Origin: Nanobdellota archaeon | GTDB taxonomy: Archaea > Nanobdellota > Nanobdellia > Pacearchaeales > GW2011-AR1 | Length of the DNA stretch: 64,000 nt | Reading direction: 5' to 3' | Assembly: GCA_027858295.1 (NCBI GenBank) | Contig: JAQICZ010000014.1 | Coordinates: 1,293-65,292, forward strand | Shown: positions 15,551 to 43,500 of the stretch, one piece after another | How positions within the stretch are numbered: the stretch's first letter is position 1 | Layout of the letters: every line of letters starts with the position of its first letter | Position numbers and translations under genes: made by a program | The notes under the pieces: model-generated | What the model was told of the DNA's origin: nothing | The model's database searches: none | What the model saw: only the letters and a program-made list of their open reading frames with translations

Positions 15551-15578
15551 TTTTTAGTATTTAGTTATTAGTTGTTAG
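15551..15578. repeat. Heptamer array (4 units) overlapping the stop codon of the four-helix-bundle gene.
   Basis: tttttag tatttag ttattag ttgttag. Confidence 0.7.
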
Positions 15579-19162: not shown

Positions 19163-19239
19163 CTAACGGTCAACGGTTTACAGTTTACAGTCTTCAGTAA
19201 TCAGCACTCAAAACTGACAACTGACAACTGACAACTGTA
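19163..19239. repeat. Heptamer array (11 units) between the giant gene's stop and the family A gene.
   Basis: ctaacgg tcaacgg tttacag tttacag tcttcag taatcag cactcaa aactgac aactgac aactgac aactgta. Confidence 0.85.
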
Positions 19240-19259
19240 AAATTGCAAAGCAATTTTAC
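19237..19259 (-). terminator. Perfect 10-bp hairpin overlapping the stop codon of the 4849-aa gene.
   Basis: GTAAAATTGC aaa GCAATTTTAC. The downstream minus strand includes AGTTTTG within the heptamers. Confidence 0.4.
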
Positions 19260-25200: not shown

Positions 25201-28200
25201 GAATATTTTCAACTGTATCATTTAAAATATTATAATTTGCTCCAGAGATTTCTGAATCCAAGAATAAAGAACATTCTTTAATTCCATAATTATCATCTGC
25301 TATAAAACCAAAATCAATTGTATTTGAAGTTGTATTATAATGATCTATTGGAGCATCCAAAATAATTCCTGGATTTGTTAAATCAATATTAAACTCAACT
25401 AAATCACTTACATACTCGACTGAAGAAGGATCAACACAATAAAATACTGCAGTATGATTTCCTTCTGCTAAACCATAAACACTATTAACAAATGACGTCG
25501 GTGTGACTAATGTCATTGAAACATTTGCGGCAAAATCTAATGAATATTTACAACTAACGGAAGCAAGTTTTGTATTTACTTTGAAATCCACATCACTAGA
25601 ATTATAAGATTCATTTTGTGGAGTATCTAAAATCACAAACGAGTTTATCGGGACTCCCATTTCAATAACTTGCCAGAAAGCATCATTGGTTTGATCACCA
25701 GTTCCCTTATAAAATTCTAAATTAGTGTCACTAGTTAAATAATTTGTTAATGCAGAATTTGCAAAAGTTGTTCCACCACCAGTTGAATCATGTGATTCCA
25801 GACTGAAAGCTTTAGACGAATTCACAGAAGAAATTGGTTGATTGATTGCACTAGATCCAGAAATACTCCTAGTTCCATTTTGAACACCGATTTCTAAAGA
25901 CTCAACAACAAACCAAGACACAGTAGAGTCACCAGTAGTTCCAGTCCGATTAAAATCAATTTTATTTGAAAATAAAGTAGAACGAACATTGAGCTCATCA
26001 AGTCCAGTAGCACCAGAATCAAAACTATTTGAAGTGATTAAAAATGCAGTTGAAGTGTCAACGCTCTTACTCAAAGAAACAGTTCCAGAACTTCCGGAAA
26101 AAGTAGTTGCACCTACCTGAACTTTAGAACCACTCCATTCTATTGCCTGCCAAGCAATTTCACCAAAAGCCCCAACCTGACTTCTCTCGAAATTTAAATA
26201 AGAGGTATTACTAAATTTAGAATTAAAAAATCCATAAACATTTTCAGCAGTATCTGTTGAGGATAATTTGTTTGATGAAATAATAAAACTTTTACTCAAA
26301 TTAAAATTCTCTGTAAATGCAGTCACCGCAGAATCACTTGCTAAAAATGGAGAAATTCCACGACGCACAAAAATATTTGAAGATTCTATAACCTGCCAAT
26401 CAATATTAACAACTCCTGAAGTAGAATAGCGACTAAAAGTAATATTGTTTTTATTCAAAACTCCTTCAATTTGAATCTGTGCAGGAGTACTAGTTGACGA
26501 ACGAATTGAAAATAATAAAAAAGCATTTGCTAAATAATCAGTAGTTAAAGGAATGACTGTTTCACTCTCCCCGTTGGCAATTATTGTTCTTCCTTTTACT
26601 ACTTCTGGAGAAAAAGTAGTAACAATATTAAAATTACTAGAATTAATTCCTGCACGACCATTCTCTCCTAAACAAGAAAAATTAACATAATTAGCTCCAT
26701 TACGAACATAATCATCTGATGCAGAATAAAAAGTTGTATTTATTTGAGTCATCAAAACAGGCGGACCAGAATTTAAAGAATAAGTACAATTTTCAATTGT
26801 CACGTTGCTCTGTACTGCAAAAACAACTGGACTAGAATTTATTTGCCCAAAAGGAGAAACAACTTCTATTACTGGAGCAGATAATTTTTTCACCGTCACA
26901 AATCGATTATTTCTTGCATAAGACATTTCCCCTATAATATTTTCACATCGAATATTCCAATCAAAACTAACATTAGACAAATTTGTTAAAGTGAATTGTA
27001 CAGTAGCACTTTTTCCACTTACAGATTTAGTTTCACCTAATTGTAAAGAACCACTAGCACTATGAACCAAATTACATTCTTTCAAATTCGCTTTTGCTTC
27101 AACATTTGCAACAAAAGTTAAATTTGCTGGATCCAAATCATATTCTGCATAATTATTCTCTGGACTAACAAGACTTATTTGAATTGCATCTTTTCTCGTT
27201 GGCCAAGTAACAACTTCACAATTAATGTTATGAGACGGATCAGTATTTCCCGTTCTTCCTCTTTCAAATTGAATAGTAGTATTATCATAATAAAATGCAG
27301 GGTATTCTCCTCTAGACGAAGCTGTCCCTTCCCCATTAAGGAAAGAATAAGAACAAAATAAACTACTTGCATTCAAATCAATTTGCGATGGCAAAGTTGA
27401 ATTAAATATTGTATTATCTCCAATTTCTAAATCTGTTGGTGTATGATGTATAGCAGAAGAATAAACTCCTTCTTCAAATTCCACAACATAAATTTCACAT
27501 TCTTGAGGAGCAGTTCCGCCTGTACCCAGTTCTGAAGTTAAACAAGTAACTGTTGATGAATCTTTAAATTTACATTGTATATTTACATCTTCAATTCCAT
27601 ACTCTTCAGAACGACAAGAATGAATTAAAAATGAATTATTCAAGTTAACAGATTTTCCAATATCAAAATCAACCCCTGTATCCAAATGCACTTCTCCAGT
27701 ACTAATATTAGTAACTCTCGAGTTATCATTAAAACACACAACATCCGCCCGCACTTCCCGATTTCCACAAGCCCTTGTATTCGCCTGCACAGATAAAATA
27801 TTTTGAGATTCAAATTTACCCATAAAAAGTCCTTCTCCTCGACAAGAAGCATCTGAACTTGAAGACATCACATTATTTCTAACTGAAACAAAGCATTTAT
27901 CTTTGTAATTGCTTGGCATAAAAGCACAAGCAGAAGCCAAACTAATATTTAATTTATCAATTCCATTACCAACAATTCCCTCGACGTGACATGTATCAAT
28001 ATATTCCGTTTCCAAAAGACTATAAGACCCCACCATCGAATCAGTAGTCCCAATACGTTCAATAGTTAATTGATTTGAATAACCTCCAGTAATATTTGAA
28101 AAATAAAACATTCCATCTGCATTATTTGGAGCAGTGTTTGTTGATGCAGATATCTGACTATCCACAATCATAAATGCATGATTAACATAATAATTATTCT

Positions 28201-31200
28201 CTAAAGTTATATTTGTTTGAGTTCCAGAAACATATCCGAAACCAGATTCAGCTTGAACTTGCGCCCTCAAAGAAAAATCAGAAATAATAAAATCAGCAAT
28301 AGCAATATTAATTTTATTTGTTTCATCCAAAACAACATCTAATGCATAATTTACAGGATTATAAATAACAAAAAATTCCCAAATAGAATATAATGGACCA
28401 GTTGCATTAACAGCCCACTTAGAATTACAATAATCCCCTCCTTTCATACCAGATAAACAAGGCAAATTTAATGGGCTCAAAGGATTCTGCATTATTGTAT
28501 AAAATGGAACTCCAGAATTCATTGGTACTATTCCCTTGCTATTAACATCTGCCCACCTTTCAAAATTTCCAATTGAAATTAAATTTGCTTGATTTTCAAT
28601 TAATTGATATGTCTGATTAATCCAGTCTGCACTTCGTGAAATTCCAGAGATTGTTACTTCATCAATTGTCCCCACATATCCTTGTCCCCCATCAGTCATA
28701 TCTCCAATTGCTAACCCATCAATTCCATCATAATCTGCAATCCCGCCAGTATGTGCAACAGTACTAAACAAAACCCCATCCACATAATACATCGCATGAG
28801 TCCCATTATAAGTACCAGTCAATAAATACCATGTTCCATCCGCCATAGTATATGTTGCAGAACTTGTTGCCGTTGTTGTACTTGCAACATGCCACATTAA
28901 ATCAGTATCGCTTCCAGCATTTAATTCAAATCCATAAGCTCCCCACGGAGAATTATCGTTAGGACCATACCATAATGGTTTTGCATAATCTACTTGAGCC
29001 CCATTTCTTTTAAGCCAAAGTGAAACCGTTATTGCACTAGTAGGTTCCAAATCTATTGTTCGAGGTACTTCAATTACATCTGCTCCATCAAACTCTTGTG
29101 CTAGTCCAATCTTTCCAGTCGTTTCAACTGCTCCACTATTTACTGCATCATTTGCATTAATAGTTGAATCATATTTTGTTCCAGTTGTTCCATTCAAATG
29201 CCAAACTCCCAAATGATTTGAATCCCAAACTCTCGAAACATCCTCGCCAGAAACAGCCAAAGAATTATTGTAATACATACAAATTGAATTAACTCCTGCT
29301 GAAAACAAAGGCGCCCTAACCCAAACATCGGCATAAAGCGTATCATAATTTTCAATTTCAAAATCCATTTCTACTCCACCTTCAGAAGAACAACTTCCAT
29401 TAACAAACCTCAAATCCGCCAAATCTGTTTGCATTTCAGATTCTACTGGAAGTTTCAAATGAACTGGAAAATCAATTAGTGATGATACTCCACCATTAGT
29501 AATATTAATTTCTTTTCTTAAAACCCAAGAAGAATTCCACCAAATAAGTTCAGGGTCCAGCGTTGCATTGATGTCACCACATTCACCTCCGGAACAAGTT
29601 ACTCTTGATGTTATATTAAAAAAATCATTTTGTAAAACACTCGCACTCGTTGACGGAGAAACAAAATATGAACTTAATGTTCCCCAAGGAATAAACCAAT
29701 TAGAAGATCCATAATCAACATGAGAACCATTATCATAACATTCAATATTCAATGCAAAATCTCCAGAATCCTCAACTACCCAATTAAGATTATCACGAAT
29801 CCAATAATCACTCACATTTGACGTAGAATTCACATTAAAAATTGTGCTACTATCTGGAATATTTAATAATTCAAAATTTACTCCTACAACACTTCCCTTA
29901 TTACTTGTGCAATTTGCTCTAACTCTAGTAATAACCTCACCATAATTAATATCAGAACAATTTTTCCAAATACTATTCTCTTCACAGTCTATTGAATTTA
30001 TCACAGAATTTCCAAAACTTGTTGTTGTTGAAATAGTCAAATTTATCGAAGGAGTTTGAGTTGTATTAACATAAGAACTATAATTTATTGAATCATAAAT
30101 TGTAAAAAATTCCCAAGAAGAATCCAATCCACCAGTTGCATTAACAATCCAACTATTCACACAAGAATCACCATCTTTCATATCTGCCAAACAAGCAGTA
30201 TCTATGTAATTCACAGGATTTTGACTTGTAGTATAAAATGGAACACCTGTATTCATTGGGATTATTCCTTTGAAATTTTCACTAGCTTCTCCATATAATA
30301 CCAAATTATTTTGATTTTGAATTAATTGATATGATTCATTAATCCAGTCTGCGCTTCGAGGCGTATCTGAAAATCTCAATTCATCAACTTGCCCATCCAA
30401 ATGAGTTTCTTCTACAGCAGTTGATCTATAACCAAATCCTGACCGCAAAGGTTCTCCCGAAATAACATTCAATGCCTGTCCAGAACAAGTTGTACTTGTA
30501 GCAACACTTTGACCATCAATATATGCCGTAGCTGTAGTCCCATCAAAAGTCAAAGCATAATGATACCACTCACCCAAATTCACAGCACCACCTGCAAAAT
30601 ATCCTTCTGTTCCACCACAAGTTACCCCAAAAGTTGGAGCTCCAGCACTTACAGCAATTCTAAAAAGATAGTTTGCCCCCCAACCCAATTGTGACCCTTT
30701 CCATAAAATCGGATTATGGTCTGGCGTCGTCCATGTGTCAGCCTTTGCCCAACCCTCTGCTGTAAAAACTTGTTTTTGTAAATCAGTAGAATCAGGTACT
30801 TCAATTCTTTGTTGATTATTTCCTCCAAGGTCATAACCAGAAGCAACTTTCGCAGATGCTAAATAAGTAGGAGTAGTTCCTAGTGGTGCTCCATTATTAC
30901 CATTTCCCGTTGAATCTAATAAAAAATCTCCAGTCCCGCTAGCTTCTTCTAAATGCTGAACTGTCATATAATTGGAGTTCCAAACTCCAGCTGCATTCCC
31001 CCGATTAACTGCATTCGAGTTATCATAATACATACAAATTGAATTTATACCAGAATAAAAATTTGGTACTCTTAACCAAACATTTGCAAAAGTAGAATTA
31101 TAACTTTCAATCTCAAAATCCACCTCAGAACCACCACCCGTTTGACACGCGCCATCCACAAATCTTAAATCATCCAAATTTGAACCCATTTGTGATTCAA

Positions 31201-33805
31201 TTGGAAGTTCTAAATAAATGGGAAAATTCGTTAATATTGACGCCCCCACATTTGTAACATTAATTTCTTTTCTAAAACCCCAAGAAGAATTCCACCAATT
31301 CTCCAATGGATCAAGTGTCGCATTTACATAACCACACTCCCCCCCCATACAAATAACATTTGACGTGAAAGTAAATAAATTATTTTGAGCAACTGTTTCA
31401 TTTTGGTTGGGTACAACCAATTCTGATGTCAAAACTCCCCAATCAACAAACCAAGTTGATTCACCAGGACTAGGCAAGGGAACATCATCAAAACAAGTAA
31501 TATTCAAAACAAAATCTCCTGAATCATCAATTAAAACATCTGAATTATCATACGTCCAAAAATCTCCTGCATTTGAAGTTGAATTAGAATTAAAAAAGAC
31601 ATTAGAATCAGGGGTATTTAATAATTCAAAATTTGCTTCGCTAATTGCCCCCCCAATACTTGTACAATTTACCCTAACTTGAGTTATAGTTTCTCCAAAA
31701 TCTATTTCATTACAATTTTTCCACGAACCAGACTCTTCACATTGAATTTCATTTACTTGTGCAGAACTACTTTGTTCATCTACCCTAAATACCACATCAT
31801 CGGTATCACTCCACGTTTGAACATCTCCACATGTATTTGTGACATCCCCATTATATTGAATAATTCCTCTAACTACATGATCTCCAGAAGAACCAGTCAA
31901 AACAAAATCAGAACTAAATAAATAGAAACCCCCATTTACAGGACAAGTGCCAACCGAATCAATAATCGTCCAAGAAATACTAGACGCATCATTAGCATAG
32001 ATTAAATTTAAATTATCATTCGCATTATTATAACAATATGCCCAAACATCTACCCTCACAGTGTCCCCATCCTCTATAGAACTACCATTCAAGCTAGTTA
32101 TAGTAATGTTTTCTATATTCTCATCCGTTAGATATGTCCCATCAGAAGTACCATCAATACAGGAATCTACTGTATTTGGATTGTTTGGCTCAGAAGTCCC
32201 CCCCATGCCCTCTTCTGCAATCAGCAAAGTTGTTGGTGCAACACAAGGAGAATCTGAAATAGAACAATACGGCGCCCCAAACCCAGGATTATATGCTGCA
32301 GTAGGATCTACAACATAATCAAAATAAACACTCCCTTCTTTAACCAACAAATCAAATGTATTTTGATCTCCAACCAACTCTTTCAAAAATATTTGGTATT
32401 TTTTATCCTCTTTAATTATTCCAAAGTCTGCAATTAAAACATCTGAATCTTTTTCATAAACTTCTACGCTTGCACCTTCGTCTGATTTCGCATAAATTGT
32501 TATATCTTTTGAGCTATCCAAAAGTTTTTCAAAAACAACACGTATGTATTCTCCTGCAGGAATTGCTACAAAAATATTATCTCTTTCCCTCACCTCTTCA
32601 TAAATATTTTTAATAAAATTTCTTTCACTGTCTAAATGTTCAGCTGCATTAATTATAATTATTTCAAACGTCTGCGTAGACAAATGGGGAACGACAAAAT
32701 AAATCTCATCAATAAAACCATTTCCATCAGTATCATTAACTTCAAAATCTAAACTTTGATTTTCTTCAACCCAATTAAGCTTAATCTCTTTCTTATCTTT
32801 AGCATATTCATTAATTTTCGTAGAAGTATAAACGTTTTTGTAACCCAAATAATCAGGAGCACTAACAACCACTTCTTTTGCTTTCTCACCTAATTCTTTC
32901 TCACTTATTTCTGGAGCAGGAGTTTCATATTCGATTCTGACTTTTCCTAAAGACTCATTTAAAACGACTTCTCTCTTAGCTACCTCCTTAGAAAAAACAG
33001 AAACAACCTTGTTGTAAATATTCACATCAGCCCCAGCCCCAACCAAGCTCCCATTTTGAACAAAACTCACATTACTAGCAGCATATGGAATTAAAACATT
33101 CCCCGAACTGGTATTTACCCACTCACTCCAACGCACATTCTCCCCAACCCTAATTACACCAATAACAACCAAAGCCCCCTCCTCTCCAATCTCATCAATT
33201 TCTTTCAATGATTGGACATTCAACTGTGACACTATAGAATTACTCGTATTCTCATTCTTTTTAGTCACACCTCTAGTTGTAATATTTGTATTTTCCTCCA
33301 ATAACCCATTAACCTCCTCGTCCTCACTAATATTTTCCACAGGATCTATTGGATAAGTTAGTGTGACATCCTGCTCTAAACTCTTAACCCTTGCTGTTTC
33401 TACCTCCTCTTCTGTTTCAAAAACTTCAAAATAATTAATTTCCTTACGTCCCTCAGACTGAATCGTGAATTTATACTCTCCAATCTCAATCAACTCAAAC
33501 AAAAAAGTATCTTCAGTCCCCTCTTTCAAAAACACATTAGAGGGGGTATCAATCCTAAGTTCATAATCGACATAATCCGACAAATCAACTCTCAAATTTT
33601 CCCCAACAACATAGCCCTCTTTCTGAATAAAATTAGCCCCAGCAAAAGACAAAGTTAAAATTAACAATAAAGCTAACAGAAAACCGCTAACAGAAAACCG
33701 CTGCCTACCTAACTCTTTGCCCCTCAAGCTTCTAGCCTCCAGCTTACAGCTTACAGCTACCTGCCCCATTCCTTCTTTCTTATCCCCCATATTATTATCT
33801 CTCAA
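19256..33805 (-). CDS. Giant surface protein, 4849 aa. An alternative start is Met13 at 33769.
   Basis: Single uninterrupted ORF. It has an N-terminal signal anchor FLLALLLILTLSFAGA and a head of about 450 aa paralogous to that of the 6119-aa protein. Also present are two DUF2341+LamG modules, further LamG-like domains, Ig-like repeats, a CARDB-like domain and a C-terminal family A domain. Confidence 0.9.
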   Translation of the reverse strand: MRDNNMGDKKEGMGQVAVSCKLEARSLRGKELGRQRFSVSGFLLALLLILTLSFAGANFIQKEGYVVGENLRVDLSDYVDYELRIDTPSNVFLKEGTEDTFLFELIEIGEYKFTIQSEGRKEINYFEVFETEEEVETARVKSLEQDVTLTYPIDPVENISEDEEVNGLLEENTNITTRGVTKKNENTSNSIVSQLNVQSLKEIDEIGEEGALVVIGVIRVGENVRWSEWVNTSSGNVLIPYAASNVSFVQNGSLVGAGADVNIYNKVVSVFSKEVAKREVVLNESLGKVRIEYETPAPEISEKELGEKAKEVVVSAPDYLGYKNVYTSTKINEYAKDKKEIKLNWVEENQSLDFEVNDTDGNGFIDEIYFVVPHLSTQTFEIIIINAAEHLDSERNFIKNIYEEVRERDNIFVAIPAGEYIRVVFEKLLDSSKDITIYAKSDEGASVEVYEKDSDVLIADFGIIKEDKKYQIFLKELVGDQNTFDLLVKEGSVYFDYVVDPTAAYNPGFGAPYCSISDSPCVAPTTLLIAEEGMGGTSEPNNPNTVDSCIDGTSDGTYLTDENIENITITSLNGSSIEDGDTVRVDVWAYCYNNANDNLNLIYANDASSISWTIIDSVGTCPVNGGFYLFSSDFVLTGSSGDHVVRGIIQYNGDVTNTCGDVQTWSDTDDVVFRVDEQSSSAQVNEIQCEESGSWKNCNEIDFGETITQVRVNCTSIGGAISEANFELLNTPDSNVFFNSNSTSNAGDFWTYDNSDVLIDDSGDFVLNITCFDDVPLPSPGESTWFVDWGVLTSELVVPNQNETVAQNNLFTFTSNVICMGGECGYVNATLDPLENWWNSSWGFRKEINVTNVGASILTNFPIYLELPIESQMGSNLDDLRFVDGACQTGGGSEVDFEIESYNSTFANVWLRVPNFYSGINSICMYYDNSNAVNRGNAAGVWNSNYMTVQHLEEASGTGDFLLDSTGNGNNGAPLGTTPTYLASAKVASGYDLGGNNQQRIEVPDSTDLQKQVFTAEGWAKADTWTTPDHNPILWKGSQLGWGANYLFRIAVSAGAPTFGVTCGGTEGYFAGGAVNLGEWYHYALTFDGTTATAYIDGQSVATSTTCSGQALNVISGEPLRSGFGYRSTAVEETHLDGQVDELRFSDTPRSADWINESYQLIQNQNNLVLYGEASENFKGIIPMNTGVPFYTTSQNPVNYIDTACLADMKDGDSCVNSWIVNATGGLDSSWEFFTIYDSINYSSYVNTTQTPSINLTISTTTSFGNSVINSIDCEENSIWKNCSDINYGEVITRVRANCTSNKGSVVGVNFELLNIPDSSTIFNVNSTSNVSDYWIRDNLNWVVEDSGDFALNIECYDNGSHVDYGSSNWFIPWGTLSSYFVSPSTSASVLQNDFFNITSRVTCSGGECGDINATLDPELIWWNSSWVLRKEINITNGGVSSLIDFPVHLKLPVESEMQTDLADLRFVNGSCSSEGGVEMDFEIENYDTLYADVWVRAPLFSAGVNSICMYYNNSLAVSGEDVSRVWDSNHLGVWHLNGTTGTKYDSTINANDAVNSGAVETTGKIGLAQEFDGADVIEVPRTIDLEPTSAITVSLWLKRNGAQVDYAKPLWYGPNDNSPWGAYGFELNAGSDTDLMWHVASTTTATSSATYTMADGTWYLLTGTYNGTHAMYYVDGVLFSTVAHTGGIADYDGIDGLAIGDMTDGGQGYVGTIDEVTISGISRSADWINQTYQLIENQANLISIGNFERWADVNSKGIVPMNSGVPFYTIMQNPLSPLNLPCLSGMKGGDYCNSKWAVNATGPLYSIWEFFVIYNPVNYALDVVLDETNKINIAIADFIISDFSLRAQVQAESGFGYVSGTQTNITLENNYYVNHAFMIVDSQISASTNTAPNNADGMFYFSNITGGYSNQLTIERIGTTDSMVGSYSLLETEYIDTCHVEGIVGNGIDKLNISLASACAFMPSNYKDKCFVSVRNNVMSSSSDASCRGEGLFMGKFESQNILSVQANTRACGNREVRADVVCFNDNSRVTNISTGEVHLDTGVDFDIGKSVNLNNSFLIHSCRSEEYGIEDVNIQCKFKDSSTVTCLTSELGTGGTAPQECEIYVVEFEEGVYSSAIHHTPTDLEIGDNTIFNSTLPSQIDLNASSLFCSYSFLNGEGTASSRGEYPAFYYDNTTIQFERGRTGNTDPSHNINCEVVTWPTRKDAIQISLVSPENNYAEYDLDPANLTFVANVEAKANLKECNLVHSASGSLQLGETKSVSGKSATVQFTLTNLSNVSFDWNIRCENIIGEMSYARNNRFVTVKKLSAPVIEVVSPFGQINSSPVVFAVQSNVTIENCTYSLNSGPPVLMTQINTTFYSASDDYVRNGANYVNFSCLGENGRAGINSSNFNIVTTFSPEVVKGRTIIANGESETVIPLTTDYLANAFLLFSIRSSTSTPAQIQIEGVLNKNNITFSRYSTSGVVNIDWQVIESSNIFVRRGISPFLASDSAVTAFTENFNLSKSFIISSNKLSSTDTAENVYGFFNSKFSNTSYLNFERSQVGAFGEIAWQAIEWSGSKVQVGATTFSGSSGTVSLSKSVDTSTAFLITSNSFDSGATGLDELNVRSTLFSNKIDFNRTGTTGDSTVSWFVVESLEIGVQNGTRSISGSSAINQPISSVNSSKAFSLESHDSTGGGTTFANSALTNYLTSDTNLEFYKGTGDQTNDAFWQVIEMGVPINSFVILDTPQNESYNSSDVDFKVNTKLASVSCKYSLDFAANVSMTLVTPTSFVNSVYGLAEGNHTAVFYCVDPSSVEYVSDLVEFNIDLTNPGIILDAPIDHYNTTSNTIDFGFIADDNYGIKECSLFLDSEISGANYNILNDTVENIQTFVSNGIHDWFVSCLDYSNREVISSSRQINVTGEYSIDWNNRLYESSTSNFVGNVAQINLKNKRDLIENYLSINLSGSSVTDFVIPMTTYLGNNGMRIPTGATVSFSSYTEVDTVNAVYLTWKLYFENSSGDNLICQSGNDYTGGLRVSATSGVWTSNCIVPNEFILKNSDKIKLVISGYNDNVGNVTLIHRWDGLKASFVEFSDFSLIGQLYTDFLYPVNDKVMTEAEEDNFTCQVNCSIGECVNVDLTLQYLNDSVWVNVHNNNEHLIFGDGYEWRDLGTINYGSVSEDIPVMAISPGNAILRCYARYDYGNAFGFLMPTVDVIKVPRASYINPTPVNGIEVPQDFIPINISVNETDLNTVILDFNGVNQTLFNSLIMLGYNLDREEFRGENDTHVSSFVGGIDGTIYGANYTTGYEGLALSFDGVNDYIQTDVSLTPVLGSTSSLSFWVKTTQVGDDTMWMAPGVTGIEEAGGGNDIFIGWLDATGHIGYTVANSAAVKSTVPINDGTWKHIVISRYANNGSSKIYINGELNQQAISYIGNVTNNFYSFGRIEDTGGTPEYFNGSFDKFVVYDRVISDEEAKELYTGQRTFFVNETSLINDDYMFTTYAENYYGGVRQITRTVSTKFGDVVAPQLVITGIENEGAYTTGNFNIDVYLDEYGNSCSYVLDSASSVSMNRVNDTHFDMTLNSVSEGNHIIAFSCRDSSNNENLTIYNFAIDTINPSLVFGSLTPADSSDHLPDGLIIDVDLTEANLEEVVLDFNGTNNFIYDGSLIGLIGLDNLATFSENSNNIYDYVSGALGDNNGASWISGEGHDGLGAYRFFRGDSDYIEIGAPYNFVSKNITILSWVKTSSIVNEESILSIDDSAGNTLLSIGHAAGSNFLSVADSYGRTISNSVLVDGDWHQIGFAFYEGKNISIIYDGEVVRTFSTTVTLPSDLKFNLGMGYNGITPSYFFDGYIDEVKIYDKILNSSELIIKNRTNFYKKDLDKYYFNIEFNNLTYGDYDYSVLARDSSDLIGTTGDRSITIRDMDTVGPVITLNLPIDSFTSSSSSVNFNFTVIDNTDDSMDCTLYVGDVSYSGITAPNNTLINYLVNSLGDGPKYWNVSCIDMDNNVEFSEQQVITIAESPTINLNDANNSYLTNSLEYTPNDNSNITSCSLIIGGVVFDTISSIVTDSQNIFDITSLSQGYFDYAVNCTDVYLLESISEDRFFYKDLTAPNLTLAYPLNNSEVYSGEVNFTFWFDDLYSSEAYCNLTIDDVIVNESILASEGVNVSFVHSLNSNNHTWGASCVDLGENYVSSLEYEFENFAAPQVAIDSPENNVWTNDTDVTFSYTVGDNSGLANCSLYVDSVFVSVDTNIENWVSNSFTETLTENNHNWSIECYNNLNLVGYSETSFLSIDSHVPNIITHHPTGGETFDWNNLKFNFTYIDNLDSVGNCEILINGFNESGVLASNNTVSESFVDVHDGDYSWSIRCGDEAGNSFETLEKSFTMTAPPVIDIVSPTNNTFDTNSSVNFTYIPKDGSGLTQCEMFFDGSSLGADVVIENNVENMFEVNGISEGNHYWNISCSDVDSNVAWVENSIFTRDVTPPFASLVAPVADAKVDANIDPLQFQWRPTDNLATAIQCDLLVDDIKVRNNIWAGNDSIGQSNVNGISVGNHNWSVECVDLTGNVNTSEIYNFSYGYPDFFVSAVTLNDSTPVEGKSILINATVSNIGIADASGVLVEFYSGYPATGFKIGERIIDLNVSDVLYVNYSYDTVIGLNELWVVVDGADSFTEGDENNNLGNENVSVGAWQFFYGNIESASELELADLENNSVINWFASASVFMSDKDSSVSWDSVLAFGYNNVSAYSVDDFLEVDSLLSMVDFPDSISALYLTAFVPNEVDSFSVFGRTLPAVPVTQSTSNNNFKTGILWDSSDDTNGEFDIAEAEDLIFVSKINKGAVGNYGTYDYELRVPAKLREYSGAGSEAVFYVELQ
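19259..19816 (-). other. Family A domain forming the C-terminus of the giant protein.
   Basis: GAWQFFYGNI, FKTGILWDSS and AVGNYGTYDYELRVP, ending in AVFYVELQ-COOH. These align with family A's W.(G/A)(Y/F)(F/V)GNV, FEEVALWDGG and ATGYDGTAYDFQMIVP, ending in YYLYVELD-COOH. Confidence 0.75.
19817..20131 (-). other. CARDB-like domain (approximate bounds).
   Basis: VEGKSILINATVSNIGIADASGVLVEFY...NELWVVVD...EGDENNN is the typical CARDB pattern. Confidence 0.6.
28590..29550 (-). other. DUF2341 plus LamG/ConA-like module number 2 of the 4849-aa protein (approximate bounds).
   Basis: WWNSSWVLRKEINITNGG..FPVHLKL..DLRFVNG..MDFEIENYD..VWVRAP..ICMYYNN..VWDSNHLGVWHL, then LamG-like sequence ending in SRSADWINQTYQLIENQ. 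Confidence 0.7.
30310..31300 (-). other. DUF2341 plus LamG/ConA-like module number 1 of the 4849-aa protein (approximate bounds).
   Basis: WWNSSWGFRKEINVTNVG..FPIYLEL..DLRFVDG..VDFEIESYN..VWLRVP..ICMYYDN..VWNSNYMTVQHL, ending in PRSADWINESYQLIQNQ. Confidence 0.7.
33672..33769 (-). repeat. Fourteen in-phase heptamer units inside the 5' coding end of the giant gene. They include two perfect 14-mers and two perfect 7-mers.
   Basis: gctaacagaaaacc occurs twice (33672..33699) and gcttaca twice (33742..33755). All units from 33672 to 33769 keep one 7-nt phase. The stretch encodes MGQVAVSCKLEARSLRGKELGRQRFSVSGF. Confidence 0.85.
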
Positions 33806-33822: not shown

Positions 33823-34026
33823 TTATTTAATAAATGACCACAAGTTCATTCGCCCGACTCTAAACCCATTCACCTTTCCAGCAATCTGAAGCATCAAACA
33901 ACGAGTCTGCACAGAATGCCACGGCTTATTTAATTTAATAGAAATATCTTGAGTAGAAACAAGCTGCTCGCTAGAACTTAATAATTTTACAATTTTCCCC
34001 TGTAATTCATCCCCTTTAACAGTCAC
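33823..34026 (-). CDS. Small winged-helix DNA-binding protein (67 aa, GTG start) directly upstream of the giant gene.
   Basis: KIVKLLSSSEQLVSTQDISIKLNKPWHSVQTRCLMLQIAGKVNGFRVGR has a wHTH-like pattern. An AGGGGAAG SD lies 8 nt upstream. Confidence 0.55.
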   Translation of the reverse strand: MTVKGDELQGKIVKLLSSSEQLVSTQDISIKLNKPWHSVQTRCLMLQIAGKVNGFRVGRMNLWSFIK

Positions 34027-34131: not shown

Positions 34132-34552
34132 ATAATAAACAGCCTAAAAATCTTTTTAAACATTGCGAAGTTTCGCACGAATAACCGTACGATGTATTGC
34201 AAAAAAAGAAATGAAGAAACTCACTTTCATAAAAAAAAGCCGCCTACACATCTTACCTTCTTAACCACAAAGTCAGGCAAATCTGCCCTTGCTATTCTCC
34301 AACAGTTCAATCTTTTTTACAATAACTAGTTCCATATAATTCTAGAAACCAATTTAATATTTAGATCGATAACTCCCCCAGATTATGGGGCAATACTTAA
34401 TTCCAATAAGGCTCCATTGAGTGGTTACAGTCGAACAATTCATGCACGCACCACGAGGGATAATTCAAAATGTTTTGGCAACAATTAGGGCGGGTGTGAC
34501 GTGTTTCCAAAATTCGGGACGCGAATAATAATTGCCAAAACTGCTTTCTATT

Positions 34553-34637
34553 TTCTGCCTTCTGCCCTCCTTAATTCACAGTCTACCGTCAACCGTCTAC
34601 GGTTCACAGCCAACGATCTGCCATCAACCCTTCCCTT
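34553..34637. repeat. Heptamer array (about 12 units).
   Basis: ttctgcc ttctgcc ... ttcacag tctaccg tcaaccg tctacgg ttcacag ccaacga tctgcca tcaaccc. Confidence 0.8.
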
Positions 34638-34660
34638 TCACTTCCAAGTTACCCTAAACC

Positions 34661-34668
34661 TTTATTAA
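34661..34668 (+). promoter_or_regulatory. TATA-like box TTTATTAA, 22 nt upstream of the first hairpin of the plus-strand hairpin RNA.
   Basis: The sequence context is CCTTTATTAATC. The paralogous box lies at 12609..12617 on the minus strand. Confidence 0.5.
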
Positions 34669-34689
34669 TCAAAAACTCATAAATTCCTT

Positions 34690-34975
34690 ACTGCCTTCGG
34701 GTAGTTTTTGTCAACTTCGGTTGTCAAAACGAACCAGTCTTCGGACAGGTTCAGAGTTCGACTCACGTCAAACTCAGAGTAACCTTCGGGATACTCAGAA
34801 TTAACTTCGGTTAATTCATTAAGTACCAAAATTTATTTTGGTCACCACAGATCTTCGGATCCAACGGTCAGACCGATCCTTCGGGATCAGTCGAGTTGAA
34901 TTTATTCAACTCAGAATAACTTCGGTTATTCTCGGGGGCAAGATTTTCGGATTTAGCCCCCTAAATTTTTATTTT
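34690..34975 (+). ncRNA. Candidate ncRNA of about 11-12 back-to-back hairpins: 9 capped by UUCG (including the terminal stem) and 2 by UUUA. It ends in the stem GGGGGC...GCCCCC plus a T-rich tract.
   Basis: Stems: 34690..34705, 34706..34729, 34731..34752, 34777..34796, 34798..34817, 34825..34842, 34850..34861, 34871..34892, 34893..34912, 34913..34932 and 34934..34961. Three 8-bp stems are perfect, and the others have at most one mismatch. Confidence 0.65.
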
Positions 34976-35409
34976 ATATAAATATTAATGTTTTATTTTT
35001 ATTATAGGATTTTTAATTCTATTATATATATGCGAACGCCCACGCCGAGCATTAAACCACTACAATATTATCTATCAATAAATCATCAATAAATCAAAAC
35101 TACTCTGCTAATCAGAAACAATCTGTGCACGCACTACGAGGGATAATGAAATTAGTCGTTCTGGGTGGGTGAGCATCTTCTAAAATTTTTTAATAAATAG
35201 AAAGTCCCATTGATTTAAAGAAAGATTTCACGGAGTGCGAATTATCAAAAATTATTAAAGAATTTTTTGCAATAATTACAAAATGACGAAAAGCCATCGG
35301 ATATATTGCGGAGGCCGGGGGAACGAACAGTGTGGGTGAGAATCTTCTGGCGCCCTCAATTAAAACCTTCTTGGCAACACGAAGTTTGAATAGGGAGGGG
35401 CGGCCTTAA

Positions 35410-37526: not shown

Positions 37527-40500
37527 TCATTGCTGTAGCCATGCATAATCCTCAGTCATGCTAACCTCAAACCCTTCCTCCATATTTACTTCAAAATTCC
37601 GACCTATACACGGTCCAAAAGGGTAACAAATCTGCCCTAGACTATCCTGAGACGCACTATCCCATCCACTAATTGCATCTTCAAAATCAATAGACGCTCT
37701 CAATTCACTTGCGCTAGTAATTACTGTAGAAGCAGTCATCCCAATCCAATTTTTATTAAATCTTGTTCCACTTTCATCATAAACCAAATCAACCCATACC
37801 GGACTATTGACAATCCCAACACCAGACCAGTTAATACTCACAGGACCAGAAGTATTCATAATAACCTCATACCCTTCACCAGCTTTCAAATCAAAATTAC
37901 AAGCTGTATCAGTACAACTAAAACTCTCCGGACAACTAAACTCGTTACAGCTAACTTGCTTCTGAGTTGCTGTGTCTAGTCTAGAAATAGAAGTAATCCC
38001 AGTAATCTTACCCAAACTTTCATTAGCATTAGAGATACTAGTAAAATTTGTAGGGAACGATATCCAATTCCGATTCGTAATGCTCCCTACCGGGCTAACT
38101 ACATTATGGTTCAGTGTATAAACATGTGCTCCATATGTTTCAGTACTAATATTAGCACTTGAAGGGTTCCAAGCTTCAACCTTATAGAATCTTCTTCTCT
38201 GGCCTACAAATGTTGTATCTGTATAATTTGTATTCGCAGTCTCAGCAATCATGCTCAAAGCCCCCATATCGCTTCCAGCATAAATACGATAAGTCAATGC
38301 GTCAACACTAGCATTCCAATCAATAAAAATATCTCCAGTCCCGTTATTTGCACTTTGGGTTATATTCGTAAATGCTGGCCTTGTCGGAGGTAAGAATGCT
38401 CCAAATGTATTATTTGCCGTCATACCCAAATTTCCATAAATATCATAACATTCAACAGTCCAATTATAAAATCCGCCAACTCCAACATTTACACTAGCAA
38501 AATCAACTTCATAATAAACAGTTTGATTCAAATGCCAACCGCCATTCCACGAACCATAAAGCGAGCAATTACTCATAGAACTTTCATCTGCAAAACTATA
38601 ACCAAATGACGGGATAAAATAAGTTGAAAAATTATAACTATTCGTAGGACTCGTTAGCTCAACAGCAGGAGCATTCAAATCACGCATCTCAACTGCAAAC
38701 CACGTACTCATTCCAGCCCCCGCATTTGCCCCTTTCTGCAAAGCCAAAGTATTATTATTCTTTATCTTCTGTGTCAAAGATGAAGTCGAATAATCCGTAG
38801 CAGAACCATCATTATAATGAGAATTTAAATTAAATGCACGCGAACTATTAATCAGATCACTACCCAACGAAACATCTTGCTCTGCAGTAGAAACTAAATG
38901 CGCATAATCTCCACTCTGAACATCAAATAAATCAGATTCCAAAACAAAATAATTAATACTAACATTTCCTGCCGTCCCAACCCTCTCAAAGCTAATATTG
39001 TTATTAGTTTCAAATCCTCCACGAATCATAGAACTATCAACAACATTTGAGCCATTAATGTTATTTGAAAATACCAAGAAGGACTTCGTTAAATCAACAC
39101 CATTAATAATTGCATTATTCACACTATTTCCAACACCAAGTTCCAGACTTCCAGATTGCACGGAGATGTCTGCCCAATCAACAACTTGGAAAGAAAGTTC
39201 TCCCGAGGACCCATTAACCCCTCTACTGAACCGAATAGTAGTATCATCCAAAAATTCTGCAGAAAACATTCCATCAATGTTCTGGGCAGATCGCGGAGAA
39301 TTAACTCGAGAATTTACAATAATAAAACTACTTGATAAATTCACAGCATTAATTGAGGTATCGATATAACTCTCCGAACCGAAATCCAATTCTCCACGCT
39401 GCACACTAATATTAGGACCGACTACTAAATTCCACTCAACAAAAACAGGCTCTCCACTAATATAATTTTCAAAAGCAATTGTATTCACATCCAAAAATTT
39501 AGAAAGAACATTCAATGTATCAGCTCCCTTATCTCCTCCACGAGCCGTATGTAAAATAAACGACTTGCTCATATCAATCTGATCAACTGCTTCTTCCTGA
39601 TAACCGTCAACATATGATGTTCCACTAATTACTCTATATGTTGGAGTAAAAATCAAACTTGAATTAACAAAAAAAGTTGCACTTGTATTATTCAGATATC
39701 CCATAGTATCGTTAGCATATAATTCAAGCGTATGAGATGAAAAATCATCCACATTAATCGAAGTATCGAAACAATTTGGAAGAGTAATATTCACTTCGCC
39801 ATCAAGATTATACCAACACTTATCTAAATGAACATCAATGGCATCATAACTAATTCTAATCCCATTTGCGTAACTATAATTTGTACTTTGTGGGCTCTCC
39901 AGAATAAGCCTCGGGTTCGTAACATCAATCAAACTAATATTCCTAGTTACAACAGAACGAACATTCCCCGCAAAATCATAAGCACTCACATTATATTGAT
40001 AAGTCTTATTTTCACTTGATGCTGTAAAATTTATAGAAGTCACAGGAGTATTATAAACAGTTTCATTTACTAAACCGTTTCCATCATAAAGCCCATACCT
40101 TATTTCTTTAAAATTATTTTCTAAGATTGCAGTCTCTACAAAAATCCAATCACGCTCAACCACATATCCATCAGCTTCAGTATTAACAGTATAACTCAGA
40201 ACTGGCAAAGTAGTATCTAAATTAATTCTTCTCGTATTCAAGCTCACACCATGACCCGCCTTATCATAAACAGTTACATTATAATAATAACTTCCATCAA
40301 CCAGCCCAGTCCAATTAATCTCTCGTGTTCCATTTGAGAATGTCTGACTAGTAATAATTGATGTATCATTACTTAAAATAAAAGTCATATTCGCGAAATT
40401 CGTATCCACAACTGTTGTGTTAACATAAACCCAACTCTCACTTTTATTCGCAGAATCAACTTCTACCCCACCAGCATAATTAACAACCGGCAACAATGTA

Positions 40501-43500
40501 TCAAGCGTAATATTTCTCGTCTCACTCGAATTAACATTTCCTGCCTTATCCCAAACAGTAACATTATATAAATATTCGTCATTAGGCAAAAGCGTCCAAT
40601 TAATATCTCTTTTAGAATTTGAGAATGAATTGATTGATACTGAATTCGCTGAACTATCAAATAAATTAAATGTAATATTATTATAATTTATTTCATTAAC
40701 AGTTGTATTCAAATAAATGAAATCCTGAGACATGTACACTCCACTATTTTCCGTAGGATTCACAAATGTAACCACTGGTAAAGTTGTATCAATTGTTATT
40801 GAATTATTAGTCGTATTATATAAATTAGCAACAGAATCTTCTGCCTGATAAAACCAGTCGTAAATCCCATCAACCAAGAAATCATAAACAACTCCAACAG
40901 TCGCACTCAAAGTTCCACCTAACGAAATAGGAGAACTGTAAACAAAGCCTGTCGAGTTGAAAATATATAACATCACTCCCGCAAGGCCATTCTCATCAGC
41001 AAAATTACCTGTCAAATTCTGATTTGCATTATTCGTAATTACCCCACTATCTGGAGAACTCAAACTACCTGTAGGAGCCTTTGTGTCAAGCATAATTTTT
41101 CTAGTAGGAGAATAATCACTCCTGTCCGCCTTATCATAAACCGTCATATTATAATAATAAGTTCCATCCGCTAAATTTGTAAAAGTATAATCTCGAGTCG
41201 AATCATTAAAAAACTTACTCGTAACCTCGATCCTAGACTCATCGAACAATCTAAAAGTTATATTCTTATAATTATTTTCAACAATAGAAGAATTTACATA
41301 AATAAAATTCTGACTAATATTTATATTATCAACTAGTGTATTCAAACCAAAATCAACAACAGGATTAGTAACATCAAAAGTAATTGAATAATTACTAACT
41401 GCCCAAGTATAATATCCTTTTGTATCATTACATTCGACATTCCAATAGTGAGTTCCCTCCTCACTCAAATTCAAATAAAATAGAGGTGAAACAAATGTCT
41501 CTTCACTCCCTGCCAAATAAGTTGGCTCGACTAAAAGAAGTTGACGAACTTTAATAAAATCCCAATAAGCAGTAATAAAATCAGTCGTCGTATGTGATGT
41601 CGATGAAAAGCCTATTTCAACTGGATCCGTGACCCCTATATCTTGATTTACTCCCAACTGATTCCAAGTATCACCACCATCAACTGAATAATAACTGGAT
41701 ATTATTGAACCCGATTTTATTAATCTAAATAATGTTGGGCCAGAAGTTGCAGCACCTATAACATTTCCTGCATAATTCCACTGAAATCCCATTCCATTTC
41801 CCATTGTGTCACCAACCATGGCATAATTAGTGCCTTGGGTTGCTGCATCTTTAACAATTAGTGATGCTTTTCCCCATGCGTTTGTAGCCCAAGTGGTCGA
41901 AGACAATTCTGCTTCCGCAATAAAATCTCCATTTAAAGGTTGAGAAACAAGTCTCTGGTCATCCTCTGCTCCCCAAATATCTGCACCTTGACCTGAAACT
42001 GCTAAAAGCCCACCTGCCTCAGTAGTACTACCTACACCAGTTTGAATATTATAACTAGTCCATTCATTTGAAATTGTTCCATCATTAAAATCATCATAAA
42101 CAGAAAATACATTACTTTCATTCTGTGGTGGGTTTGTAGCAGTAGGATTATTATAATAAACATAATAATTACCATCACTTCCAAACCCAGCAATACTTGC
42201 TTGTATACTAAACCAAATTTCCGTATTTACATTATTAAATGCCGTTTCATTATGTCTATCCAATTCTAGAGAAGTGCTCCCTTCCACATAAACAATTCTC
42301 ACATCCTCACCATTTGTTTTAAAATCACTTCCAGTTGTATCCATTGTTAGCATCATACTATAACCTTTATTAATAACGACAGAGTCTAAATTGGTAATAT
42401 TTATCATTTTTCTTTTAGAATATCCAGAATTCCACCAACCAACATCGGTTGTTTGATTCAAATGCCACCCGCCATTCCAATCACCATATAATGAGCAGGC
42501 GACTGCTCCATCTGGATCTTCAGCCGTATAGTTAAAAACGACAGATTGCGCTGAAGAATAAAAAACATTATCCGCTGGCTTCAACAATTGAATTGCAGGT
42601 CCCGTTGTCGAAATCAAAAATGTAACATTTTCATAATTCATATTTCCAAGTGTATCATTTGCATAAAAATGTAAAGTATGCTGCCCATCACTTGTGTTGA
42701 AATTTGACGGACCGGAACAACTCACAGTTGTATTCACACCATTATCTAAATTATACCAACAAACATCATTGCCAACAATTGCATCCGTAACAACATAGTC
42801 AAGTGGCAAGCTCAAGTTATATCCATATGCTTTTGCCTTTGGATTAATCAAACTAATTACCGGACCAACATAATCAAGCCCACTCTTTCTCAAAGTTGTA
42901 TTTCCAACCACTCCTGCCTTGTCAGAGACACTAATATTATAATAATAAACAGCGGACGCAAGTCCTGTAAAATTAAAATCTCTAGTTGTATTTGTGAATG
43001 TCTTGCTGGAAACTTCACTCATCAATCTATCAAACAATCTAAATGTAATATTATTAAAATTACCCTCAACAACACTAGCATTCACATAAATCCAGTTGTC
43101 AGTATTATTAATTCCATCCGCCAAAGTTCCAACCCCAAAATCAACTATAGGCGCGACATTATCCAAAACCAGAACCCGAGTCAAAGTACTAGCTTTGTTT
43201 CCTGCCTTATCATAGGTAGTTGCATTATAATAATAAGTTCCATCAGATAGACTAGTCCAATTATATTCACGAGTCGTGTCAGAAAAGCTCTGACTACTAA
43301 CAATTGAAGACTCATTACTCAGCGTAAGAGTAACATTTTTAAAATTACTTTCAACAAGATTCACATTAAAATACACCCAATCGCGAGCAAAACTAGTATC
43401 ATTATTCTCTGTTCCAAAAGCATATGTAATCACAGGCAAAGTATTATCCAAAATAATTGAACGAGTTGAGGTAGAAGTTTTATGACTCACTTTATCAACA

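Follow-up and report, generated by a model that had tools for sequence, protein, structure and literature searches.

Window positions 34690-34961 on the plus strand hold a row of consecutive short hairpins, most of them capped by UUCG, which raises the question of whether the locus encodes an RNA and, if so, of what kind. The window is the whole 64,000-nucleotide stretch that was analysed, from a Nanobdellota archaeon (GCA_027858295.1, contig JAQICZ010000014.1, positions 1,293 to 65,292). An earlier note, made from the sequence alone, proposed a stand-alone novel ncRNA with its own TATA box and terminator, a paralogue, and no known family. Each of these points held up, although transcription is inferred from the sequence in the absence of expression data. 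We consider it highly likely that the locus belongs to a real, independent family of structured non-coding RNAs.

Two hairpin arrays in the window

The sequence and the minimum free energy fold give 12 stem-loops between 34691 and 34961 on the plus strand (array A). Their loops are, in order, three UUCG, one UCAC, two UUCG, one UUUA, two UUCG, one UUUA, and two UUCG. The linkers are mostly 0-5 nt long, with two longer gaps of 6 and 9 nt around the eighth hairpin. Three 8-bp stems are perfect (34798-34817, 34893-34912, and 34913-34932). The hairpin that the earlier note listed as a weak twelfth is located at 34754-34775 and has the UCAC loop. Hairpin 1 (34690-34705, ACUGCC-UUCG-GGUAGU) occupies the conserved 5' hairpin position of the family described below. 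The terminal hairpin (34934-34961) has a GC-rich base (GGGGGC/GCCCCC), a 1x1 internal loop, an AU-rich top, and a UUCG loop. It is followed by the T-run TTTTTATTTT (34966-34975), which is the presumed archaeal termination signal. The sequence CCTTTATTAA (34659-34668) ends 22 nt before the first hairpin and is part of a BRE/TATA-like promoter box, AAACCTTTATTAA (34656-34668). The predicted transcript of RNA gene A is about 285 nt long (34688-34975), with ends inferred from the promoter spacing and the T-run.

The paralogue that the earlier note placed at 12412-12617 is real, but it lies on the minus strand, which the note did not state. It contains seven hairpins, all with UUCG loops (12422-12587, array B). 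Its BRE/TATA-like box, AAAGCTTTATTAA read on the minus strand, is at 12609-12621. The predicted transcript of RNA gene B is about 175 nt long (12413-12590, minus strand) and includes the terminal hairpin 12422-12453 (GGAGGAC..UUCG..GUCCUCC) and the U-run 12413-12421. The sequence CTTCGG occurs 28 times in the window against 8.8 ± 2.8 expected, and eight copies lie in 34695-34925 (plus strand) and six in 12464-12582 (minus strand). The fold energy of array A is -107.9 kcal/mol against -63.9 ± 4.5 for shuffled sequences (z = -9.8), and array B has z = -5.5. Two small open reading frames overlap array A, one of 50 aa on the minus strand and one of 47 aa on the plus strand. We judged them spurious, because conservation follows base pairing and not a reading frame.

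Rfam 15 (4227 models) gave no hits in the window at gathering thresholds. Permissive scans of both arrays and of a canonical family member gave only sub-threshold matches of 19 bits or less, against thresholds of 33 or more, and a scan of a bacterial look-alike produced nothing relevant. In 12 family loci only tRNA and small SRP RNA were found, and these lie elsewhere in the loci. ARAGORN detected no tRNA or tmRNA in the window. The stems all differ and there are no repeat/spacer units, which is not consistent with a CRISPR array. A scan for sigma-70 promoters and intrinsic terminators, which is uninformative for an archaeon, found no more sites than in shuffled sequences. Six full-text literature searches combining UUCG/tetraloop, small-RNA, and hairpin terms with DPANN, Woese-, Pace-, and Nanoarchaeota names found no description of such an RNA.

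A conserved hairpin-array family in DPANN archaea

Pattern scans recovered members in 11 DPANN MAG contigs and more than 20 low-GC metagenome contigs. The family was recovered from 39 distinct gene copies in DPANN MAGs and metagenome contigs labelled Woesearchaeota, Pacearchaeota, or Nanoarchaeota; loci outside the window are denoted by L numbers. Each copy has 2-13 hairpins with stems of 4-10 bp joined by 0-3 nt linkers, and the last hairpin is longer. The commonest form is a three-hairpin RNA of about 80 nt, and the window holds expanded forms. Arrays grow by internal duplication, as in L239. An AAA + TTTAWA-type box sits at -34 to -22 in the 39 distinct copies, about 27 nt before the first hairpin, with TTTAWA starting at -29 to -27 in 26 of 39. 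This spacing places the transcription start at the foot of the first hairpin. Gene B and the gene A orthologue L254 carry the identical CTTTATTAA. Almost all copies inspected end in a hairpin with a G/C-rich base followed by a T-run.

Many hits of the pattern scans were chance matches in GC-rich bacteria, or tandem repeats of CAACTTCGGTTG-type units that look protein-coding (L098, L128, L184, and L240), and these were excluded. The scan of IMG/VR gave 10 loci; none of the 6 searched with the family model matched, and 2 others are plain tandem repeats. None of the 4 Patescibacteria loci from the scan matched the model.

A structure-blind MAFFT alignment of 21 three-hairpin members from other organisms contains 24 base pairs, 16 of which show compensatory changes. 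In this alignment 93.1% of cells are paired against 81.4% in shuffles, and the covariation score is 0.539, a value that 0 of 500 shuffles reach, against 0.298. Slid controls gave 26-56% paired. The invariance of AACUUCGGUU in this alignment is partly forced by the search patterns, and only arrays found by gene order are free of that bias. A covariance model built from the 21 members without window sequences (R1) finds only the two arrays in the window below E = 0.001, and only on the predicted strands. In array A, it hits 34892-34970 (50.2 bits, E 3.5e-8), 34687-34761 (35.0 bits), and 34775-34839 (28.6 bits). In array B, it hits 12415-12500 (55.7 bits, E 3e-9) and 12518-12590 (48.0 bits). The next best hit in the window scores 13 bits. 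Hairpin 1 and the terminal hairpin of gene A align with the corresponding hairpins of the model.

The discrete hairpins, short linkers, and freely varying number of units could indicate a precursor that is cut into many small hairpin RNAs acting singly, for example loaded into a protein. However, the commonest form has only three hairpins, and two-hairpin genes exist. The first and last hairpins have distinct, conserved identities, which suggests that the whole molecule is the unit. Stems of 4-10 bp are probably too short for known dsRNA-processing enzymes, and no conserved cleavage motif is visible in the linkers. We therefore regard processing into small RNAs as unlikely.

Strand, gene order, and separation from neighbouring genes

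All hairpins of a gene are oriented with its TATA box and T-run. The alignment contains about 72 G-U cells against about 10 A-C cells, and the sense strand is more stable in 26 of 30 members, by 9 kcal/mol on average. UUCG stabilises RNA, whereas TTCG does little for DNA (Weinberg et al. 2010, PMC2864571). For array A itself, the sense and antisense fold energies are nearly equal (-107.9 against -108.0, and -102.7 against -101.2 on trimmed coordinates) and do not discriminate between the strands, so that the strand assignment of this copy rests on the promoter, the T-run, the UUCG orientation, and family membership. The fixed orientation, the excess of G-U pairs, and the greater stability of the sense strand in most members rule out DNA palindromes in random orientation, which the earlier note had named as a possible refutation. 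The inverted repeats could still act as DNA, either as binding sites for a dimeric protein, such as a divergently encoded winged-helix (wHTH) protein, or as cruciform or recombination sites. In favour of this, a conserved 67-aa wHTH gene lies divergently next to the long arrays in 5 of 8 wHTH loci examined, a distant wHTH paralogue lies next to array B, AAC..GTT around many loops is palindromic, and the DNA fold is also far better than shuffles (z = -9.2). However, the stems differ in sequence while pairing is preserved, the many G-U pairs would be A-C mismatches on the other strand, and most family members have no such wHTH gene nearby. A DNA-level function is thus improbable.

In the window, the 67-aa wHTH gene (33823-34026, minus strand) is transcribed divergently from gene A and is followed by the gene of a 4849-aa surface protein. 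The arrangement of a 654-aa gene, a long hairpin RNA on the opposite strand, the wHTH gene, and a giant gene recurs in L254 and L257, whereas L258 and L262 show at least the part from the RNA to the giant gene. These four loci were fetched through the neighbouring 654-aa protein or the wHTH protein, and not by sequence pattern, and they carry 9-13 hairpins at the same position and orientation. In gene A and these arrays, 41 of 59 loops are UUCG, and the rest are mostly one-step variants such as UUCA, UUCU, UCCG, and CUCG. The second conserved gene order is that of gene B. Its orthologue (L079:6589-6762) sits directly upstream of a DRG-type GTPase gene whose product is 70% identical to that of window 10775-11788. 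In the window, a PD-(D/E)XK gene (11924-12298) lies between gene B and that GTPase gene. A tblastn search with all window proteins found only the GTPase synteny with L079 to be relevant to the arrays.

Several copies occur in different contexts, with two paralogues in the window, two in L172, two in L192, and two in L257. This could indicate a selfish or mobile repeat, similar to MITE or SINE, without function for the host. A 31-nt direct repeat brackets gene A at 34434-34464 (plus strand) and 35117-35147, and its presence is unexplained. However, the repeat was not found in any other locus. Copies sit at the same syntenic positions across deeply diverged genomes, before the DRG GTPase, aIF5B, or PC4-like gene, or between the 654-aa and wHTH genes where neighbour identity is 42-45%, which indicates vertical inheritance. 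Furthermore, paralogues differ in stem sequence, and there are no terminal inverted repeats and no transposase. A mobile origin is therefore improbable.

The neighbours differ between loci and include aIF5B, a PC4-like protein, DRG GTPase, aIF2-beta, tRNA, and SRP RNA. An all-against-all comparison of flanking open reading frames identified no universal partner. Many short copies lie 38-62 nt upstream of a co-directional gene such as aIF5B, the PC4-like gene, or the DRG GTPase gene, where they could act as 5' leaders or attenuators. However, a separate TATA-like box lies between the T-run and the downstream ATG in these cases, about 25-30 nt before the ATG, the downstream genes are unrelated to each other, and gene A and its orthologues are convergent with the next gene. 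The leader function is very unlikely.

Alternatively, the element may be a promoter-plus-terminator cassette that works in cis, insulating tightly packed genes, blocking read-through, or protecting adjacent 3' ends, with the RNA as a by-product. The intergenic spaces are very tight, and in L254 and L257 the end of the RNA lies 14-18 nt from the stop codon of the convergent 654-aa homologue. Single GC-rich cUUCGg hairpins followed by T-runs occur in other spacers of these genomes, including L121 and L156, and the lineage therefore seems to use such hairpins at gene ends. In the window, the isolated hairpin at 62394-62411 reported in the earlier note is real and located on the minus strand, between two minus-strand genes (GGGCAUC-UUCG-GAUGCCC), but it is not a family member (R1 score 13 bits, E 0.67). 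The one that the note listed near 19068-19085 is weaker, with a 5-bp stem and a 7-nt loop followed by a T-run. Nevertheless, a terminator does not need a conserved BRE/TATA box placed exactly one promoter distance before the first hairpin, nor 2-13 hairpins kept by compensatory changes over deep divergence. On the opposite strand, the terminal hairpin is preceded by an A-run rather than followed by a U-run, and many copies have co-directional neighbours with their own promoters. The cis-acting cassette is unlikely, although it is the least unlikely of these alternatives.

Possible function and comparison with known systems

The explanation that we favour, with moderate confidence, is that the two arrays are genes of an undescribed family of stand-alone non-coding RNAs. 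If transcribed, the RNA is probably very stable, because both its ends are buried in hairpins. About 70% of its nucleotides are paired and no single-stranded seed exists, and we infer that it acts by being bound rather than by base pairing. We tentatively propose a multivalent platform or sponge for a protein that recognises cUUCGg-capped helices. The variable number of similar hairpins, the loops more conserved than the stems, and the paralogues within short distances are consistent with this possibility. However, no partner protein is identified, UUCG loops are compact caps that are more often structural than protein-binding, and selection for sheer stability could explain them without any ligand.

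Beyond rRNA, tRNA, SRP RNA, and RNase P RNA, almost nothing is known about the non-coding RNAs of DPANN archaea, which have some of the smallest cellular genomes. The family is conserved and covarying, has its own promoter, is kept in several copies per genome, and often sits among translation-factor, tRNA, and SRP RNA genes, and is therefore likely to matter to the cell. UNCG tetraloops are reported to be rare in natural RNAs outside the ribosome (PMC4937326), whereas these RNAs are built almost only from them. Model R1 would enable the annotation of these genes in MAGs, where they are currently blank spacers or spurious small open reading frames, and the natural arrays could serve as templates for recombination-resistant stable RNA scaffolds.

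We speculate that the long arrays could be the ligand of the wHTH protein encoded next to them, which would read the Z-like CpG step contained in every cUUCGg loop (D'Ascenzo et al. 2016, PMC4937326). The RNA would then titrate or deliver this regulator and so control the adjacent giant surface-protein genes of the symbiont. This would be the first sponge-type RNA-protein regulatory circuit in archaea, and a cellular use of Z-turn recognition outside innate immunity. The evidence is weak and the reading is improbable, since the linkage holds in 5 of 8 wHTH loci and the short family members have no such neighbour. The AlphaFold model of the 67-aa protein (pLDDT 91.6) has a predicted minimal winged-helix fold similar to the Z-alpha domains of ADAR1 and PKZ (Foldseek TM 0.83-0.86, rmsd 1.1-1.5 Å over 63-65 residues), but MarR/ArsR regulators and the Hop2 winged helix score equally well. 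In a profile alignment with an hhalign probability of only 3.9%, the Z-alpha signature residues Asn173 and Tyr177 (ADAR1 numbering) correspond to Gln40 and Leu44, and only Trp195 is kept, as Trp63.

The bacterial protein-sponge RNAs CsrB, CsrC, and RsmX-Y-Z are also stand-alone genes with their own promoter, a terminal hairpin plus U-run, many short hairpins sharing a loop motif, a unit number that varies between paralogues and species, and no base-pairing seed. However, their loop motif is GGA, bound by CsrA/RsmA, whereas none of the 59 loops counted in gene A and its synteny-found relatives is GGA-type. Rfam Csr/Rsm models do not match the arrays, and the genes described here are archaeal, with BRE/TATA-like boxes. 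The resemblance is one of logic only, and not of ancestry. The last hairpin and U-run of the family look like a hairpin-plus-U-run terminator, but a terminator explains only the last roughly 40 nt, and not the promoter or the 1-12 preceding conserved hairpins. REP/BIME elements of bacteria are clusters of intergenic hairpin-forming palindromes that can stabilise RNA ends. They share sequence, occur in both orientations and in hundreds of copies, lack their own promoter, and depend on RAYT transposases, whereas in the arrays the stems differ, the orientation is fixed relative to a promoter and terminator, and the positions are syntenic. The STAXI motif is a tandemly repeated unit often capped by UUCG tetraloops, which its authors also used as an argument for RNA rather than DNA function (Weinberg et al. 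2010, PMC2864571). The STAXI unit is a pseudoknot that occurs in bacterial DNA next to genes for DNA-manipulating proteins, whereas the units described here are plain hairpins in archaeal housekeeping or surface-protein contexts, without an Rfam hit to STAXI. The A-repeat of Xist contains tandem short AUCG-capped hairpins, with a conserved UNCG-like tetraloop, that serve as a multivalent protein-binding platform. It is part of a eukaryotic long ncRNA with near-identical repeat units and long U-rich spacers, and there is no evolutionary relation to the arrays.

Two hairpin arrays in the genome of a DPANN archaeon

Inspection of positions 34400-35200 and folding of positions 34680-34985 showed twelve consecutive stem-loops between 34691 and 34961 on the plus strand (array A). 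The loops are, in order, UUCG, UUCG, UUCG, UCAC, UUCG, UUCG, UUUA, UUCG, UUCG, UUUA, UUCG and UUCG. The linkers are mostly 0-5 nt long, and about 71% of the nucleotides are paired. The fold energy is -107.9 kcal/mol, compared to -63.9 +/- 4.5 kcal/mol for dinucleotide shuffles (z = -9.8). The box CCTTTATTAA (34659-34668) is located 22 nt before hairpin 1, and the last hairpin, GGGGGC..UUCG..GCCCCC (34934-34961), is followed by TTTTTATTTT. The paralogue that the earlier note placed at 12412-12617 is real, but it is encoded on the minus strand (array B). It contains seven hairpins, all with UUCG loops, including a terminal GGAGGAC..UUCG..GUCCUCC hairpin followed by nine U, and it is preceded by the same box, AAAGCTTTATTAA, at the same distance. 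The motif CTTCGG occurs 28 times in the window, whereas 8.8 +/- 2.8 occurrences are expected, and fourteen of these are in two clusters, at 34695-34925 on the plus strand and at 12464-12582 on the minus strand. Of all TTCG-capped stems of at least 4 bp in the window, seven of the nine on the plus strand are in array A, and six of the sixteen on the minus strand are in array B.

The window has a G+C content of 35% and encodes giant proteins of 4849 aa and 6119 aa, a DRG-type GTPase with a TGS domain, a class I Tyr/Trp-tRNA synthetase and other genes. The 654-aa protein encoded next to array A is identical to an NCBI protein labelled "MAG: Nanoarchaeota archaeon" from a 75.5-kb contig. The host is a DPANN archaeon, and archaeal promoter rules apply; the results of a sigma-70 scan are irrelevant. 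The two giant ORFs (19256-33805 and 37527-55886, both on the minus strand) flank the array A locus. Their homologues in related contigs carry Laminin_G_3, CARDB, MAM and Big domains, and they are presumably cell-surface proteins of the symbiont. Array A is bracketed by a 31-nt direct repeat (34434-34464 and 35117-35147; 27 of 31 positions identical, 683 nt apart), which was not found in any other fetched locus, and the spacers around the array are several hundred nucleotides longer than those in the orthologous loci. Elsewhere in the window, a 112-nt unit is repeated 2.2 times with 91% identity at 58428-58676, mostly in the spacer between the genes ending at 58480 and 58652. The genes at 327-3098 (plus strand) and 15575-15934 (minus strand) encode, respectively, a 923-aa protein with an ice-binding-like domain and an internal 285-nt duplication, and a 23S-rRNA-IVS/bAvd-like four-helix-bundle protein, near which no reverse transcriptase was seen.

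A family of hairpin-array elements with conserved structure

Most hits of the pattern scan were chance matches in large GC-rich bacterial genomes. However, eleven contigs from MAGs labelled Woesearchaeota, Pacearchaeota, Nanoarchaeota or "archaeon" carried the same kind of element, and a stricter pattern applied to metagenome contigs added more than 20 low-GC members; the range and copy number of the family derived from these scans are lower bounds. The commonest form is about 80 nt long and consists of hairpin 1, usually (G/A)UCUAAC-UUCG-GUUAGAU or GUUCAAC-UUCG-GUUGAAU, one variable hairpin, a terminal hairpin with a G-rich/C-rich base (GGAAGG..CCUUCC, GGAGG..CCUCC), a small internal loop and an AU-rich top capped by UUCG, and a T-run. 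Other loci recovered in this way, designated by L numbers, contain two hairpins (L172:8536-8596 and L192:7800-7861), four hairpins (L076 and L081), six hairpins (L097), seven hairpins (L079) or a tandemly duplicated unit (L239).

A MAFFT alignment of 21 three-hairpin members (alignment A1) gave a consensus of 24 base pairs, 16 of which show compensatory double changes. In the alignment, 93.1% of cells are paired, compared to 81.4% in column shuffles, and there are 80 double-change cells, compared to 26.7 in shuffles. The covariation score is 0.539, which was not reached by any of 500 shuffles, against 0.298 in shuffles, and slid controls gave 26-56% paired. The scan patterns required AACTTCGGTT and two more CTTCGG(T), and therefore the invariance of those columns is by construction, whereas the stems were free to vary. 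A covariance model built from A1 (model R1), which contains no window sequence, was searched against the window without filters. It matched array B with scores of 55.7 and 48.0 bits, and array A with scores of 50.2, 35.0 and 28.6 bits. All of these hits are on the predicted strands, and the next hit in 64 kb scores 13 bits, although the calibration of the model was short, so that its E-values are rough. The last three hairpins of each array align with the whole three-hairpin unit, including the terminal hairpin and U-run. Therefore, the window copies are expanded versions.

Orthologues of both arrays were also identified from gene order. L079, a Woesearchaeota MAG, contains a seven-hairpin RNA directly upstream of a DRG GTPase gene, the product of which is 70% identical to that of window positions 10775-11788. 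Hairpin 1 is identical to that of array B, and the other stems differ with pairing kept. For array A, contigs were fetched through homologues of the neighbouring 654-aa protein, which are 42-53% identical. Two of these contigs, L254 and L257, keep the gene order giant gene, 654-aa gene, hairpin RNA on the opposite strand, 67-aa winged-helix gene and giant gene. L254 carries twelve hairpins and L257 carries ten, and L257 also has an additional three-hairpin gene. Contigs fetched through homologues of the winged-helix protein provided two more long arrays, with 13 hairpins in L258 and 9-11 in L262, whereas three further loci have short upstream spacers and no array. In gene A and these synteny-found arrays, 41 of 59 loops are UUCG, and 19 of 59 have the apex AAC-UUCG-GUU. 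The remaining loops are mostly single-step variants (UUCA, UUCU, UCCG, CUCG, UUUA, UUAU, CUUG), and none is GNRA. The preference for cUUCGg is therefore real and not an artefact of the search.

Strand, gene boundaries and comparison with known RNAs

In every member, the TTCG loops, the upstream box and the downstream T-run have the same orientation. In A1, about 72 cells are G-U or U-G, whereas about 10 are A-C. The sense strand folds better than the antisense strand in 26 of 30 members, by 9 kcal/mol on average; the difference is 25 kcal/mol for array B, but only about 1.5 kcal/mol for array A. UUCG is a stabilising loop in RNA, whereas TTCG is not notably stabilising in DNA (Weinberg et al. 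2010). Together, these observations argue for function as RNA on the stated strand, and against DNA palindromes.

We anchored 39 distinct upstream regions on hairpin 1. They share AAA at positions -34..-32 and a TTTAWA-type box, which starts at -29..-27 in 26 of 39 regions. This corresponds to the usual layout of an archaeal BRE/TATA promoter with a start at the hairpin foot, although, in the absence of expression data, transcription is inferred and the gene ends are predictions. Where a co-directional gene follows 38-62 nt downstream, another TATA-like box is located between the T-run and its ATG, which fits separate, leaderless transcripts. The neighbouring genes differ between loci and include aIF5B in nine loci, a PC4-like protein in at least six, DRG GTPase, aIF2-beta with DUF5679, tRNA genes directly adjacent in four loci, and a small SRP RNA 1.2 kb away in two loci. 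Therefore, the RNA behaves like a stable-RNA gene and is not the leader of one particular gene. The SRP RNAs of the DPANN contigs L121 (2569-2666) and L239 (2298-2384) match the bacterial small (4.5S-type) SRP model rather than the archaeal model, which implies a reduced SRP RNA, and they are located in a cluster with a tRNA gene and the UUCG-hairpin RNA gene. The aIF5B gene downstream of the RNA in the Pacearchaeota MAG L086 (4416-7754, minus strand) appears to carry an intein, with the insertion directly after the P-loop (GHVDHGK|C...HN|TSILD).

Searches of Rfam 15 gave no hit at gathering thresholds and only noise below them, and ARAGORN found nothing. The element is not a CRISPR array, because it has no identical repeats. 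Six full-text literature searches found no description of it. The nearest analogies are the bacterial CsrB/Rsm sponge RNAs, the STAXI motif, REP/BIME elements and the Xist A-repeat, each of which fails on defining features. Nine human-gut metagenome contigs (L134, L146, L157, L165, L168, L174 at 3525-3720, L212, L217 and L218) hold an unrelated bacterial array of about nine GGAARC-UUCG-GUUUCC hairpins spaced by YGUUGA, which is nearly identical across the nine contigs. A permissive Rfam scan of this array gave no hit, and it may be another undescribed hairpin-array element.

Possible function and a speculative link to a winged-helix protein

The element is a conserved, strand-specific, modular hairpin chain bounded by promoter and terminator motifs. 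It occurs in several paralogues over short distances, and the number of units changes by duplication. Both ends of the RNA are inferred to be locked in hairpins, so that it should resist exonucleases. With about 70% of bases paired, 4-nt loops and 0-3-nt linkers, it is also inferred to have no seed for base pairing with targets. The loops are more conserved than the stems, and the number of units floats. Since these are the traits of a multivalent ligand for a protein that reads a capped helix, we tentatively speculate that the RNA is a sponge or scaffold, but selection for sheer stability without a ligand cannot be excluded. A purely cis-acting insulator or terminator, a precursor of small hairpins and a selfish repeat are alternatives, as are the DNA-level sites and the leader considered in the previous section. 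Single GC-rich cUUCGg hairpins (GGGCAUC-UUCG-GAUGCCC, GGGCCC-UUCG-GGGCCC) are present in spacers at window positions 62394-62411, near 281 in contig L121 and near 6534 in contig L156, all on the minus strand, and in the related contigs they are followed by a T-run. This suggests that the lineages use hairpin-plus-U signals at gene ends, which is unusual for archaea.

The 67-aa stand-alone winged-helix protein encoded divergently from the long arrays (33823-34026, minus strand; homologues in L254, L257 and L258-L262) is always encoded directly upstream of a giant surface-protein gene. Its recognition helix (PWHSVQTRCLxLQ) and wing (GFRVGRMNLW) are nearly invariant. The predicted structure of the protein (pLDDT 91.6) superposes on ADAR1/PKZ Z-alpha domains with TM 0.83-0.86, and about as well on MarR/ArsR regulators and the Hop2 winged helix. 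The Z-alpha signature tyrosine is replaced by leucine. Since cUUCGg loops contain a Z-like CpG step (PMC4937326), a link between the protein and the RNA is conceivable but remains speculative, and short family members lack this neighbour. Heptamer tandem repeats, (GTCAACG) x17, (AACTGAC) x3.7 and related C-rich, G-poor heptamer-like stretches, are present in spacers at window positions 10534-10655, 19212-19237 and about 34575-34640, and also upstream of the winged-helix gene in L258 and L262. They resemble the short tandem repeats of cyanobacteria and could be operator sites.
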